From Wickerhamiella versatilis (Eukaryota), in the NCBI GenBank assembly GCA_030867685.1, contig JAQOWU010000007.1, positions 682,001 to 746,000 of the forward strand: a DNA stretch of 64,000 nucleotides, given 5' to 3'. This document shows, piece after piece, positions 32,826 to 42,700 of this stretch (within the stretch, counting starts at the first letter, position 1; every line of letters begins with the position of its first letter). The translations under genes were made by a program, and so were the position numbers. The notes beneath the pieces were generated by a model that was given only the letters and a program-made list of their open reading frames with translations, did not search any database and was not told where the DNA came from.

Positions 32826-33953
32826 TTAAGGGCAGCGGCGGTGAACAACCTCCGGACCAGTCTCGTCGTATTCCTGCTTCGAGATCCACATCTGCTGGAA
32901 TGTTCCAAGACTGGACAGGATGGAGCCACCCATCCAGACCATGTACTTACGCTCAGGAAGAGCAATAAGCTTCGTCTTCATGGAAGATGGAGCCAGAGCA
33001 GTGATCTCCTTCTGGAGACGCTCAGGGATACCATGATACATAGTAGTACCACCAGAAAGAACGATGTTACCGTACAACTCCTTTCTAACATCAACATCAC
33101 ACTTGATGATAGAGTTGTAGGTAGTCTCATGGATACCTGGAGTTTCCAGACCAAGAACGTTGGGGTGGAACAGAGCCTCAGGGCAACGGAAGCGCTCGTT
33201 ACCAATAGTGATAACCTGGCCATCAGGAAGCTCGTAGTTCTTCTCGAGACTAGATGACTGGGCAGCGGTCTGCATCTCCTGCTCGAAGTCGAGGGCGACG
33301 TAGCAAAGCTTCTCCTTGATTTCACGCACGATTTCACGCTCGGCTGAGTTGGTGAAGCTGAAACCACGCTCGGTCAGCAGCTTCATGAGGTACTCAGTAA
33401 GGTCACGGCCGGCCAAGTCAATACGCTTGATGGCATGGGGCATGGAGAAACCGCTATAGATAGGGACGACGTGGGTTACACCATCACCACTGTCTACAAC
33501 AATACCGGTGACACGACCAGTGGCGTACAGAGAAAGCACGGCCTGAATCGAGACGTAGAATGCAGGGGCATTGAAGGTCTCGAAGATGATCTGGGTCATC
33601 TTTTCACGGTTACTCTTAGGGTTAACCGGAGCTTCAGTGAGAAGAATCGGGTGCTCCTCAGGCTGGCGACGAAGCTCATTGAAGAAGGTGTGGTACCAGA
33701 TCTTCTCCATATCGTCCCAGTTGGTGACGATACCGTGTTCAATAGGGTACCTCAAGGTCAAGATACCACGCTTGGACTGAGCATCATCACCTACGTAGGC
33801 GTCCTTTTGGTTCATTCCCACCATCATACCTGGGTGGCGAGGTCGGCCAACTACGGATGGAAAGACAGCACTTGGTGCTTCTTCACCACCGAAACCGGCC
33901 TTACACATACCAGAACCGTTGTCAACAACGAGGGCATAAGAATCGTCTGTCAT
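32826..33953 (-). CDS. ACT1: Actin (divergent, intronless)
   Basis: 375 aa, collinear with conventional actin: [48 protein letters not shown]. Confidence 0.95.
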
Positions 33954-36173: not shown

Positions 36174-39047
36174 ATGCTTCGCAAATCGGTTTTGCGGCTT
36201 AATTGTGCAATAGGTTGTCGCACGTTTGCGGAATCATCAGCACTGAAACCATTGGACACGTATGAGAGACGTCATTTAGGGGCTCAAGGGGTTGAGGTCG
36301 ATGAAATACTAAAAACAGTTGGGTCGACATCAACTGAAGATTTTGTGAAATCGGTGATCCCTGAGGACGTCTATACAAATAGAAAGCTCAGAATTGAACC
36401 GTCTTCAGGTTATAGCGAAAGTGAGCTTTTGCAAAGGCTGGGTAGTTTGGCAAGAAAAAACAATATTTCGGTAAAATCCCTAATTGGTCGTGGATATTAT
36501 GGAACACATTTACCACCGGTTATCCAAAGAAACCTTTTAGAAAACCCGCAATGGTATACTAGCTACACCCCGTATCAAGCAGAAGTTTCTCAAGGCCGTC
36601 TGGAATCCCTCTTAAATTTCCAGACATTGGTCACTGACCTTACTGGCATGGACATTGCGAATTGTTCTCTATTAGACGAAGCTTCTGCAGCAGCAGAAGC
36701 TATGGTACTTTCCTTTTCATCCGCTAAGAAGCGTTCGTATTATTATGTCGATGAGAATACGCTTCCTCAAACAAAGCAGGTCATGCTTGGACGAGCAAAG
36801 GGTCTAGGAATCAAAGTTATATTTGGAATGCCATCATCAGAAGATGAATGGAAAAATACTTGTGGAATACTACTGAGCTATCCTGGGTCAAATGGGAGCA
36901 TCACTGATTTTAGACAACTTTCATTAGATGCCCGTAATCATGGTGCAACTGTATGTGTTACGTCTGATTTGCTTGCGCTCACCATCCTAGAGCCACCTAA
37001 GTGGGCTGACGTTGTGGTCGGATCTGCCCAGCGATTTGGTGTGCCCATGGGATACGGAGGACCACATGCAGCCTTTTTTGCAGCTAGAGATCAATTCAAG
37101 CGACGAATTCCTGGAAGAATCGTAGGTATCACCAAGGATCGACTTGGAAATCAAGCGTACAGGTTGGCCTTGCAAACACGCGAACAGCATATCAGGAGAG
37201 ATAAGGCTACCTCGAATATTTGTACTGCTCAAGCCTTGCTGGCTAATATTTCGGCTATGTACGCATGCTACCATGGTCCTCAAGGACTAACTGATATAGC
37301 AAAACGCGTCCACTCCCTCACATCGACTCTAGCAGCAGTGGTTGAGGCATCGGGATATGAGCTCGTAAACAAGACATTCTTTGACACATTGACGATTCGT
37401 GTATCATCTGTGGATGAATTCCTGGCAAAGGCTAGGAAGAACGGATTTAATCTTTATGGAAAGGGAGATGTCGTTGCTGTTTCCTTGGATGAAACCGTCA
37501 CATCTGAAGACTTTCAAAAGCTTTGCGATCTTTTTGGTGCAAATTGGAAAGAGCCAAAGATGTCTATATCGAGTGAGAGATTATTGTTCCCGCGTACCAG
37601 TCCATTCCTGCGCCATCCAGTATTCAATAGTTATCATTCAGAGACAGAAATGCTGCGCTATATGAATAGGTTACAGTCAAAGGATCTGTCACTGGCCAAT
37701 TCCATGATTCCTCTTGGGTCCTGTACGATGAAACTTAATGCTGCTGTAACAATGCAGGGAATTACTTGGCCGGAGTTCTCAAGTTTGCACCCTTTCGTGC
37801 CAAAAGATCAAGCAGATGGCTACACTGAGCTAATCCAAGAGCTTGAAGCAGATCTAGCGGAGATCACCGGTTTCCATTCTGTCTCAGTGCAGCCAAATTC
37901 GGGAGCTCAAGGAGAATACACTGGCTTACGGGTAATCAGAGCTTACCAGTCCGCGCAGAACGAGGGCCACCGTAATGTATGCCTGATTCCTATTAGTGCA
38001 CATGGAACTAATCCAGCTAGTGCAGCCGTTGCTGGGATGAAGATTGTCGTGGTCAAATGTTTGCCATCGGGTGAACTTGATCTGGAGGATCTTAAGGCGA
38101 AAGCTCAGAAGCACGCAGCAAACTTGTCAGCGTTTATGGTTACCTATCCTTCAACTTTCGGAGTTTATGAACCAGGTATCCGTAAAGCCATCGAAATTGT
38201 CCACGAATTTGGCGGACAGGTATACATGGATGGCGCTAATATGAATGCGCAAGTTGGTCTAACTTCCCCTGGAGATTTAGGCGCTGACGTATGCCATCTA
38301 AATCTACACAAGACATTCTGTATTCCTCACGGTGGTGGTGGTCCTGGAGTTGGTCCGGTATGCGTCGCCAAACATCTGTCACCATATCTTCCCGGAGCCT
38401 CCTCAGGGGTCGAACCAACCAGTGCAGCCCCATTTGGATCAGCAAGCATTTTGAGTATATCTTGGGCATACATCAAGCTCATGGGACCACAAGGTTTGAA
38501 GAATGCGTCGATCATGTCTATGCTCAATGCGAACTATATGGCCAGCCGCTTGAGAAAGCATTACAAGCTGGCTTATGAAGGCCGCTGTGCACACGAATTC
38601 ATTTTAGATCTTCGTCCATTCAAGGCTGCTGGTGTGGAAGCTGCAGATGTGGCTAAAAGACTCCAAGATTATGGATTCCACGCGCCCACAATGTCGTGGC
38701 CAGTCGCCGGAACGCTCATGATAGAGCCCACAGAGTCTGAATCTAAGGCTGAACTCGATCGTTTCTGTGATGCTATGATAAGTATTCGCCAAGAGATCCA
38801 AGAAATTTTGGATGGTAAGGTGGATGTAAAAGCTTCAGTACTCGCTAATGCGCCACATACGGCAGAAGATCTCCTGCAAAGTGAATGGGATCGTTCTTAC
38901 ACTCGCGAGCAAGCTGCATATCCATTGGAATTTGTCAAGAAATCCAAGTTTTGGCCAAGTGTGACTCGAGTTGACGATTCTTACGGCGACATGAATTTGT
39001 TCTGTACCTGTAGCCCCGTTGAGGAATATTCCAGCCTCGAGGATTAG
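36174..39047 (+). CDS. GCV2: Glycine decarboxylase P-protein, mitochondrial
   Basis: [38 protein letters not shown]-lysine motif [31 protein letters not shown]. Confidence 0.97.
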
Positions 39048-39260
39048 TTGACTAGTTAGCGAATTGATTTTTTGTAGTTTTGGATTGAGAAAGTAATACC
39101 TGACGTTGTCTAAAAATTTTGCTGCTGTGACCTCTAATTACCGTTCGTAGTTTCTACTTAAAATGACCAGCCTAGATATTTGAATTTTCTCTATTTTTAC
39201 CTTTTAATAAAAAGAGGCCAGACAAATATGCATTTTACATGTTACGTGCTTTTTTTCTTA

Positions 39261-39572
39261 GGAGGGATTCCCTCCATGAGCCACTTAATGTCCTGATACT
39301 TCACCAGACCTTTCAGACCCCGAGTAGAGCCAAACCAAGCCTCCTTGATGCGGAAATAGAGCTCGTACGTTGTTCTATTATGCTAGAGTGCGAAATATCG
39401 CGCAACTACAATATTAGCAACTTATTATGTACGAGACAGGTCTTAGCAGGACTGCCACCTTGGCAGCACTGGATAGGGACGTGCCTCCACCTTTCACTGG
39501 CTTTTTTACTCTGAGGCTTGCTCTAGCACGGCCTGAGGGTGGCTCAACAAGAACCGTGACTCTGAGCGCCTG
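39261..39572 (-). ncRNA. Putative structured non-coding RNA of unassigned class
   Basis: Several mutually compatible nested helices inside a 690-bp convergent gap (see findings); G-U pairing slightly favours the minus strand; no credible ORF. Confidence 0.5.
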
Positions 39573-39737
39573 TAAGCTTTGTGTGAAAAAAGAATAACTT
39601 AGTCATTATTTGCCTTATATACGTATCACTGTAGACATACCAATTATTCAAAGCGTGCACTGTCGTAAACGAATTAGTTTCTCGAGATATCATGTATGCC
39701 TGAGAGAATATATTGATAAATTAAAGACAGTAAATCA

Positions 39738-42700
39738 TCAGTTTTTGTGCTCGACTGGTGTAGGATTCCAGCCACCGACAGCACCACTAACAACTATAGG
39801 CGCCATCAAAGCAGTCAAACTAGAAGACCTACTCTGTCTCGCCGAGCTATCAAAGGACGGTCTCAAATGAGTGATCGACGGCGTATGTCGTACTATCATC
39901 TCCTTAGTCTGGTGAATCGGAAACAGCTGTTGCAGTCTGCCTCCACGAAGACGCTTGATCAATCGTAACTCACCAATCGACTGCTCAATGCCAGGTGCCC
40001 AGATATAATCGTATCCTGGCGACTTCTCGTCAATATTATTCACATTTTGTTCCTTGGGAGGTGGATTCTTCCCTTGTACCTTGTAAAACAGCCAAACACA
40101 GCCAAAAGCCATTGCGTCCCATAGCCATCCTACCGGAGTCATGAGCCACAAGAAGCCTGTATTAACTCTATCAATGATCCACAGGAAAAAGTTTACTAGA
40201 CGTCGGGGATAAATGACCATAACCCAACTGTCCGGGATCACTTTGATCAGCATTGCAACAGGAATGGATACTAGTCCGCAAATTATACCGGTGGCCCACA
40301 TCGCGGGTCTCTTTGTATTTTGGTGGCCATTACAACTGTTGAAACAAGTAACCTGGAACACTTTGCCTCCTAGGAACATAATCAAAATTTCAACCCCACC
40401 AATGATAATGGTAATCAACCAGAAGAAGATGTTACGCTGTGCCCCAGAGAGTAAGTTCATCTTATTATCAATCCGCCGGTTGACGAACATATTGAAAAAT
40501 TGCATCCACACAAACACATTAAACACCATTGCTGTTAACACTTGTCCATCTCGGTCATATGCCTGGTCCACAGCATCCTCGCTAAGGTAGCTTGGGTAGT
40601 CGGCTTTGCTGGTGGGATAGTTAAACAACTGACGACCAGCAAAGTGTAGAACGAATGTTACAGCCAGTTGGTAGATAGTCTGTCCAAATATCATTTTCCA
40701 CATTGTTGGTGTGATCAAACTTACTTTACGCGAATCAGGCTTGCGGTAAAGACATTCCTCTGTTGGGGCGTCCGTAGCCAGTGCCAACGCAGCTAAAGTG
40801 TCCATGATTAAATTTACCCAGAGTAGCTGTACGGAGGTGAGAACCGACTCGTTGAATCGGGACGCAACCGAAGAGACAAATGTAAGCGCCACAGCTGTTA
40901 CATTGACCGTGAGCTGGAATTGTAGGAACTTTTTTACCGCATCGTTAACTGTGCGTCCCCACATCATAGCGTTCACAATCGAAGAGAAGTTATCATCCAT
41001 AATGATGATATCCGAAGCCTCTTTCGCTACCTCAGTACCTGAAATACCCATACTAAAACCAACGTCTGCTAGCTTCAAAGCAGGAGCATCATTAGTACCA
41101 TCTCCCGTGACCGCCACAGTTTCACCGTGAAGCTTTAGATATTCGACGAGCCTCCGTTTGTCTTCGGGACTAGAGCGAGCCAAAACCCTTAATCTTGGCA
41201 CAACATTCGCCATCTCATTGTTCGAGAGTTTTCTGAATTCAGGACCCTCAAAAACGCAAGTCCTTGCATCTTCTGCACTAACAATTCCGGCATTGATCGC
41301 AATCGCGCGAGCGGTACGAAGGTTATCACCTGTGACCATTCGAACGCAAACACCAGCCCGAAGACATTGTGCCACTGCATGTGCTACTCCCGGCCTCAGA
41401 GGGTCCTTTATACCGAACAAGCCTAAGAACGTCAAACTTGATATGTCGATGTCTTCTGGTTTAAGGCCTTCTATTCCCTTAGATGCTGTGAAATCTTTGT
41501 ATCCAATTCCAATAACCCGAAGCGCATCATCTGCATAATCATCTAATCGGTGCAGAAACACGTTTCGCGACTCAGGCGTGAACTCAGTACCGGAGTCTTT
41601 CAAAGCAGTGGAGGAATTCATGATAATTTCTGCTGCGCCCTTAACAAGCATGCGGTATCCAGACCCATGTTTTCTAATGGTGACCATATACTTTCTCGCT
41701 GAATCAAACGGCAATACGAACTCGCAAGGCCGCTCATCGCGGTATGTTTTTAGTGTTCCTGAACTCACACCCAAAAATCGCCTGGCAAAACCGACGAGGG
41801 CCATTTCAGTTTTTGAACCAATAAGTGTATCAGGATTATCTACCTGCTCATAAACAGAAGAATTGAGGCATATTGAGTCTGCTATAACCTCACCAAACTC
41901 CTTATCATCGAAGGTGGGCTCGTGGTCTTGCCCTTCTTTCCATGTCTCGGTTCCAATACTTGAGGCAACCACGGTCATCTTGTTCTCGGTAAGTGTTCCA
42001 GTTTTATCAGAACAAACCGTCGTGGCATTTCCCATGGTCTCACAGCTCTTAAGCACACGTACTAAACAATTATCCTTGATCATGCGTTTAGTCGCAAATG
42101 CAAGCGCAAGCGTTACCGCGAGGGGGAGACCCTCTGGCACGGCAACAACAATAATAGTAATAGCAATAATAAAAATGTTCATGAAAAGATTTCCCTTCAT
42201 TGCTGAAGTGACATGTCTTGGGTCATCAGCGTAGAAAACACCCTCCGACACCTTGATTAGATAGTGACCTGTTACTCGTACACAAAATCGAATAAATAAC
42301 ACAATAAACAGAATTATTGCAGACCATACGCCAAAGATGGCTATTCCATCGGCAATGCGGTTCAACTTTTCTTGCAATGGGGTGACCTCAGATCCTCCTT
42401 GGAGTGACATAAGAGTGCGCCCATACATACTACTCTGACCAACAGCAGTAACCATGTAGACACCACTTCCTTGCATTACTTTAGAGCCAGATATCATGAC
42501 GCAATCAATTTTCTTGTCATTCGTCTGACCCCCATCCATTAGTTTGAGGGCATTAAATGCGGACACTTTTACAAGATTATCTGACTCTCCAGTAACAGAC
42601 GACTCGTCGCATTGGACGTCATTAGCCTCAAGCAGAACACCATCAACTGGGAGCACGTCTCCGGGTTGTATCACGGCCAAGTCACCGACCTCGAGCTCTC

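Follow-up and report, generated by a model that had tools for sequence, protein, structure and literature searches.

The Locus and Its Transcript

The window, i.e., the whole stretch of 64,000 nucleotides analyzed here, is part of an 8-contig genome of 9.88 Mb and carries long genes, mostly single ORFs, with short gaps between them. The gap at 39048–39737 is flanked by the ORFs of a glycine cleavage P-protein (plus strand) and a P-type cation ATPase (minus strand). As pointed out in the initial annotation, in which the two genes were named GCV2 and PMC1, this convergent gap of 690 bp is unusually long; the other nine of the ten convergent gaps between ORFs of at least 150 aa span 26–273 bp. 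It contains a GC-rich island, with a G+C content of 0.51 in 39261–39572 vs 0.31 and 0.30 in the flanks. A TATA box (TATATAA, 39615–39621, minus strand), which had also been recognized earlier, is the sole TATAWAW within the 3451-base locus, where 1.84 would be expected by chance.

Three RNA runs (X6, X7, and X9; same species label, two samples) and one contig run have been employed, 24–48% of each RNA run being read. The RNA strain differs from the window at 53 of 1050 positions. In all three RNA runs the reads form an island at ~39235–39584, so that the discrete transcript asked for in the initial annotation does exist. The peak depths of the island are 107, 98, and 316, at or above those of the flanking coding regions, with troughs beside it at 39130–39164 (7, 16, and 11) and 39585–39619 (5, 15, and 38). 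Past 39584, 132 reads of X9 run into a foreign sequence. We take this sequence to be a template-switch oligo; its orientation indicates that a minus-strand RNA begins at 39584, 31 nt downstream of the TATA box. The read ends of X6 and X7 pile up at 39566, 18 nt inside, and not at 39584, which is probably a library effect and less likely a trimmed 5′ end.

A poly(A) junction near 39351 is indicated by 18 reads with a T run ahead of 39357, and the depth steps down near 39410 from 107 to 72 (X6) and from 98 to 68 (X7). Among the positions listed, there is no read-end pile-up at the predicted 3′ end of the mature RNA, 39425. The depth drops near 39235; because strain indels at 39206–39226 account for part of this fall through their effect on alignment, the end of the longer precursor is approximate. 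Read depth and the poly(A) junction place the transcribed 3′ trailer of the precursor at 39235–39424 (minus strand). Two classes of polyadenylated precursors are described as typical of independently transcribed yeast snoRNAs in the cited parts of two papers (PMC2593888; PMC12976264), and the transcript observed here fits this pattern. Precursors are probably over-represented in the reads because of the library selection for poly(A) or for long fragments.

What had been proposed at first was a novel multi-helix RNA of ~290 nt. A minus-strand non-coding RNA gene behind a TATA box, with a discrete transcript, is retained from that proposal, but not one novel RNA of 290 nt. The structured and conserved part measures ~160 nt (39584–39425) and starts 12 nt outside the span noted then, and the other half is a trailer that diverges like intergenic DNA.

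Anatomy and Class Assignment of the ~160-nt RNA

The predicted mature RNA (39425–39584, minus strand, as are its parts below) is delimited by the snR11 model, by the 5′ end from the reads, and by a putative 3′ end set 3 nt past the ACA box. It has the hairpin–hinge–hairpin–tail architecture of a box H/ACA snoRNA, with five stems at pair probabilities of 0.94–0.99. Hairpin 1 (39514–39571; 0.98–0.99 in the 160-nt RNA) consists of a lower stem, in which 39571–39564 pairs with 39523–39520 and 39517–39514, and an upper stem at 39557–39528; the pocket has the 5′ strand AGAGUC (39558–39563) and the 3′ strand GCUA (39524–39527). The H box AGAGUA (39507–39512), which fits ANANNA and is aligned with the H box of snR11, is found in a single-stranded hinge 1 nt past the stem, and the hinge between this box and hairpin 2 is A-rich. 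Hairpin 2 (39433–39487; 0.94–0.99) has a lower stem made of 39487–39478 and 39442–39433, an upper stem at 39470–39448, and pocket strands at 39471–39477 (5′, CCUAUCC) and 39441–39448 (3′). The ACA box (39428–39430) comes after hairpin 2, at the end of the model match.

In folding, the 39584–39425 core beats 59 of 60 shuffles, one being as stable. The folding z-score suggested as a check for the 312-nt island turned out to be modest (−2.39 for the plus and −2.17 for the minus strand), and the excess is confined to 39584–39425 and does not extend to the trailer.

The Rfam search recommended in the initial annotation gave no match at the curated cut-offs in the window; below the cut-offs, the best match in 38900–39900 is that of the snR11 model (RF01260). 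It covers 39583–39425 of the minus strand and the whole model (positions 1–260) with 18.7 bits against a cut-off of 42. Since this score leaves the RNA outside RF01260, it is classed here as an snR11 orthologue by target and anatomy. The model has this one match only in the 9.88-Mb genome at E up to 10 (E 0.105; 24 of 328 candidates scored), though the score by itself proves nothing, as 4 of 14 prokaryote genomes used as controls match at the same level (E up to 10). The low score results from the lack of ~100 model positions in the hairpin 1 arm; the pocket, the H box, and the ACA box align, and the first model position falls 1 nt from the 5′ end seen in the reads (39584).

The SNORA3 model (RF00334, cut-off 51 bits) detected nothing at E up to 10, neither in the genome nor in the hairpins taken singly, and the snR9 model had no match in the genome. 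Signatures of SRP, RNase P/MRP, and U1–U6 had been looked for in vain, and indeed none of these is among the four Rfam matches at E up to 10 in 38900–39900, and neither are U3, snR30, and telomerase RNA. The weak matches of Afu_455 and p27_CRE in this region were rejected, as was SNORD14 (U14) at 39114–39187 (E 0.65), which is without box C and lies where the read depth is lowest and strain differences are many.

The absence from the window of any Rfam match at cut-off level would agree with a novel RNA of another class bearing H/ACA marks by chance, and a plus-strand ORF at 39239–39514 (91 aa) might instead encode a small protein. For the former, however, the boxes, their spacing, the target, the model ends, and the homologues must all coincide. 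The ORF, in turn, has no Pfam match, lies on the strand opposite to the observed 5′ end, and has lost 1 nt at 39502 in the RNA strain (79 of 85, 78 of 84, and 181 of 237 reads). Either possibility is, in our opinion, very improbable, and we conclude with high confidence that the minus strand of the locus encodes an independently transcribed box H/ACA snoRNA that is orthologous to snR11/SNORA3 and whose transcript includes a 3′ trailer. A DNA search revealed no second copy of this snoRNA in the genome, in which Cbf5 and Gar1-family genes are present.

Hairpin 1 and Its Predicted rRNA Target

Targets were searched in the rRNA taken from the yeast's own genome (5436 nt with 1382 uridines). Ten of the 1382 uridines permit 3 + 3 pairs with the hairpin 1 pocket. 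The best match by Watson–Crick pairs only, among all of them, is 25S U2347 with 6 + 3 pairs at 15 nt from the H box: AGAGUC forms six pairs with 25S 2349–2354, and GCUA forms three with 2344–2346. Nine pairs anywhere in the rRNA are reached by 8 of 1000 shuffled pockets. Hairpin 1 thus offers a bipartite pocket with at least 8 pairs, an unpaired UN, and ~15 nt to the box, and the guide rule given in the cited part of PMC6049503 is at least 8 pairs and ~15 nt to the box. The weak point is the 3′ arm of the pocket, which has three pairs only.

The context of U2347 is equal to that of human 28S Ψ3899, as printed in the cited part of PMC6182160. In S. cerevisiae, snR11 is given as the guide of 25S Ψ2416 (PMC5699541, part cited); the equivalent site is recorded as fully (100%) modified in the cited part of the S. 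pombe map (PMC4605285), and the human Ψ3899 site is likewise reported as 100% modified. From sequence, we infer that hairpin 1 would guide the pseudouridylation of U2347 in its own 25S rRNA, the counterpart of yeast Ψ2416 and human Ψ3899. The gene is very probably of an ordinary kind, i.e., a known type of guide for one large-rRNA pseudouridine.

If G–U pairs are allowed, U2358 outscores U2347 for hairpin 1 (7 + 7 pairs, or 6 + 4 within the open pocket; 3 of 1000 shuffles). A near tandem repeat follows U2347 in the 25S rRNA (2347–2366), and because of it the pocket also fits U2358, 11 nt downstream of U2347; half of the U2358 score is due to the resemblance of the two strands of the pocket to each other. 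The U2358-equivalent position is C in human, and no modification is listed for it in the cited part of the S. pombe map (PMC4605285). A second use of the hairpin 1 pocket, at U2358, is improbable.

Homologues and Known Systems

Metagenome loci were searched with a pattern derived from hairpin 1 plus the H box, in which three of the nine stem pairs and the 5′ strand of the pocket are fixed; it retrieved 33 loci. Two of them are SNORA3 above the cut-off, L016 with 80.9 bits and L027 with 73.1 bits; for the other 31, Rfam gave nothing at E up to 1, and we regard them as chance matches. The two SNORA3 copies, at 392–523 (L016) and 392–525 (L027), lie on contigs of one metagenome assembly and are probably animal DNA in the metagenome. 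A further match of L016 is to C. elegans ceN100 (46.1 bits, E 4.8e-06), which is not assigned to clan CL00022 but might be part of it. A search for syntenic relatives, in which metagenome contigs were compared with the C-terminal 220 aa of the ATPase, yielded 127 pattern matches, none of which was confirmed.

Covariation had been named as a further check, and hairpin 1 bears it out to a limited extent: against L016 and L027 it keeps nine of nine pairs, four of them by double changes, in a comparison of three sequences only, two of which were selected by the pattern. None of the four double changes lies among the three pairs fixed by the pattern, and slid structures, used as a control, pair at 19–44%. 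The whole-length alignment was employed for hairpin 1 only, since it misplaces hairpin 2, for which a separate alignment was made. The 5′ pocket strand AGAGUC is invariant in L016 and L027, where the pattern imposed it, and is also found in the snR11 consensus and in N. crassa ACA11. A predicted hairpin 1 target at yeast 2416/human 3899, conserved pocket strands, and compensated stems are found here, in keeping with the snR11/SNORA3 orthologous group (clan CL00022).

S. cerevisiae snR11 (RF01260, clan CL00022) is likewise a stand-alone H/ACA gene with an A-rich leader; its pocket 1 and upper-stem base are nearly identical to those described here, and by context its target is the same. It differs in length, the model having 260 positions against ~160 nt here. 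In the 3′ pocket strand, the fourth position is A here but C in snR11, which leaves three pairs instead of four. The pockets of hairpin 2, moreover, deviate from the model consensus.

With SNORA3/SNORA45 (RF00334; L016 and L027), the RNA shares the short hairpin 1 and an identical 3′ pocket strand, GUGCUAGAG. The hairpin 2 pocket aligns as well, CCUAUCC with CUUAUUC and, by hand, UGCUAA with CACCAA, by transitions only in each case, and in both RNAs hairpin 2 fits the uridine that lies 39 nt past the first target. In contrast to the vertebrate copies, which are intronic (SNORA45 in RPL27A), the gene stands alone with its own TATA box. Its hairpin 2 has a longer lower stem, with 17–18 nt to the ACA box vs 13 in L016, and its 3′ arm is degenerate to G–U pairs. 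On the whole, the second arm resembles the animal version more than that of baker's yeast.

N. crassa ACA11 (EU780990) is described as an intergenic RNA of 176 nt verified by northern blot (PMC2780460, part cited) and has been equated with snR11 (PMC5824354, part cited). It is similar in size, intergenic, and A-C-A-rich at its 5′ end, and its pocket 1 and H box are alike, but by eye its hairpin 2 has no stretch matching a Ψ3938-type site in the part of the record cited. Among the literature matches listed, no paper on an snR11-type RNA in W/S-clade or Yarrowia-type yeasts was found; the species tables of PMC5824354 may already hold the RNA or the hairpin 2 target. The result is the correct annotation of a snoRNA missed by the Rfam cut-offs and a useful seed sequence, which links the long snR11 of Saccharomyces with the short SNORA3 of animals.

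The 3′ Trailer and the Long-Range Helices

The nested complementary segments on which the multi-helix RNA had been built are real as letters, all eight pairs checked being found at their coordinates. The right arms of the long-range helices (39513–39546) coincide with the 3′ strand of H/ACA hairpin 1, and the left arms lie in the trailer together with the small G/C hairpin at 39261–39275, close to the distal end of the precursor. As structures, these helices do not rise robustly above chance: the best colinear chain is reached in 14 of 500 shuffles with 6-nt seeds and in 125 of 300 with 5-nt seeds. One of the helices has a pair probability of 0 in the fold calculation, and the trailer alone (39424–39235) shows no folding signal, 21 of 60 shuffles being as stable.

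The same snoRNA might nevertheless have a long stable form (~230–350 nt), in which the trailer is kept or pairs with hairpin 1 as a switch, the precursor being inactive until trimmed. Read depth in the trailer is 36–73 (X6), 58–72 (X7), and 53–219 (X9). Furthermore, in the ensemble of the 350-nt precursor, hairpin 1 is replaced by long-range helices (−109.8 vs −99.5 kcal/mol), two of which form at 0.92 and 0.68; in the 234-nt form, hairpin 1 stands. Against this, shuffled trailers also displace hairpin 1 (14 of 100) and give an MFE as low (10 of 100), in addition to the seed dependence of the chain test.

The strain comparison bears on the same question; it rests on 40 of 76 differences listed, none beyond 39489, with hairpin 1 outside the comparison. 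Among these, substitutions amount to 16 of 190 nt in the trailer, equal to the intergenic stretch (16 of 187), and 5 of 198 in a coding stretch. Checked by hand, the changes at 39364 and 39389 break the inner helices of the initial annotation on the transcribed strand, and that at 39318 disrupts a long-range pair if the partner base is not itself changed among the unlisted differences. In the small hairpin at 39261–39275, which could mark termination, a double change at 39262/39274 keeps a pair, as the long form would have it, while the change at 39266 loses one and shortens the hairpin. Within hairpin 2, no substitution is listed in the 60 nt of stems, pockets, and ACA box, and two fall in the loop; this gives a Fisher p of 0.015 with a partition chosen after seeing the data, and with loop and hinge included (3 of 65) p is 0.42. 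Taken together, we consider a long stable form quite unlikely and have taken the long-range helices as chance. Hairpin 1, being synthesized first, would presumably be protein-bound before transcription reaches the trailer.

A second H/ACA snoRNA within the trailer would turn the locus into a two-gene transcript. Minus-strand ANANNA motifs at 39381, 39378, and 39376 (the H-like boxes being 39378 or 39376), an ACA at 39291, and a weak hairpin at 39421–39369 would suit it. The folding signal is missing there (z of 0.41 and −0.12, besides the 21 of 60 shuffles), an Rfam search of the trailer region gave no match at E up to 10, and four strain substitutions occur within the 9 nt at 39295–39303, its would-be pocket. 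We regard such a second gene as highly unlikely and keep to a single snoRNA with a trailer.

Proposed Maturation and Function

In the mechanism proposed for this single snoRNA, transcription, presumably by RNA polymerase II, would start behind the TATA box at 39584, the start and strand being given by the reads. The precursors carry 3′ extensions of ~75 and 190 nt or more and are at least partly polyadenylated. By analogy with S. cerevisiae, they would be trimmed back to 3 nt past the ACA box. Cbf5, Gar1, Nop10, and Nhp2 would bind both hairpins. The hairpin 1 pocket, with the pairing and geometry found above, would then pair on both sides of 25S U2347 and present the uridine for pseudouridylation.

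Hairpin 2 as a Possible Second Guide

The 5′ pocket strand of hairpin 2, CCUAUCC, forms seven of seven Watson–Crick pairs with 25S 2388–2394 beside U2386, and this 7-mer target occurs once in the 5436 nt of the yeast's own rRNA. U2386 sits 39 nt after U2347 and is the site of human Ψ3938. We assume SNORA3/ACA3 to be the guide for both human Ψ3899 and Ψ3938; a literature passage with this assignment was not found. By eye, the L016 pockets fit the human Ψ3938 context. In the alignment, CCUAUCC falls on the L016 and L027 pocket strand, from which it departs at two positions, both with a letter that matches the yeast's own rRNA. Human Ψ3938 itself lies 39 nt after Ψ3899 in the same context as U2386, according to the cited part of PMC6182160, and is reported as 93% modified. 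As far as the cited parts of the maps extend, the Ψ3938-type site is unmodified in S. cerevisiae and S. pombe, with no modification listed between 2421 and 2619 in the former (PMC5699541) or between 2509 and 2714 in the latter (PMC4605285).

The 3′ pocket strand pairs weakly at the U2386 flank, with one Watson–Crick and three G–U pairs (−1.3 kcal/mol) at 18 nt to the ACA box. If the stem base stays closed, the distance in this register is 17 nt and three target bases are unpaired. The same 3′ arm forms six Watson–Crick pairs and one G–U pair with the flank of 18S U1281, 17 nt from the ACA box, where the 5′ arm is weak. U1281 is the site of yeast Ψ1290, the guide of which, snR83, is reported as confined to Saccharomyces. 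Compared with the H/ACA pocket rule, hairpin 2 offers 10–11 pairs including G–U at 16–18 nt to the ACA box, and its target is ambiguous. Chance is a real rival here, 63 registers having been tried in choosing these.

Hairpin 2 may still guide modification at one of the two sites or at both, or it may be in decay. In our reading it stems from the pocket fitting Ψ3938 in animals; that it is still functional in this yeast is possible, though we would not call it likely. Similarly tentative is the more specific proposal that this yeast kept an animal-type double guide lost by both model yeasts, in which hairpin 2 would direct pseudouridylation at U2386 and its 5′ arm would have followed two rRNA changes. 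A still more daring extension is that each pocket might serve two sites, hairpin 2 also 18S U1281 and hairpin 1 also 25S U2358.

If hairpin 2 works, this would be a budding yeast with a human-type rRNA pseudouridine that neither the S. cerevisiae nor the S. pombe map contains, and the double guide would be ancestral to fungi and animals. It would also provide a simple host for deleting a Ψ3938-type modification and a test of how far the 15-nt rule and G–U pairs can be stretched.

Further Observations at the Locus and in the Genome

Read ends are found at 39617 (X9, 16 molecules) and 39612 (X6, five), near or on the TATA box of the snoRNA. They suggest that the end of the ATPase mRNA coincides with this box (39612–39621), in which case the ATPase terminator would overlap the snoRNA promoter. 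In addition, seven X9 reads with the same template-switch sequence end at 39757, in the last codons of the ATPase gene, and the X9 depth goes up in 39620–39724. Both perhaps reflect a short minus-strand transcript or a decay end.

Elsewhere in the window, an intron-less ORF of 375 aa (32826–33953) resembles what we take to be a rather divergent actin. The genome also contains two rDNA units at a distance of 7305 bp (G000:C8:287486–300226), the spacers of which are very short, and in these units of contig C8, ITS1, 5.8S, and ITS2 come to 372 nt in total.
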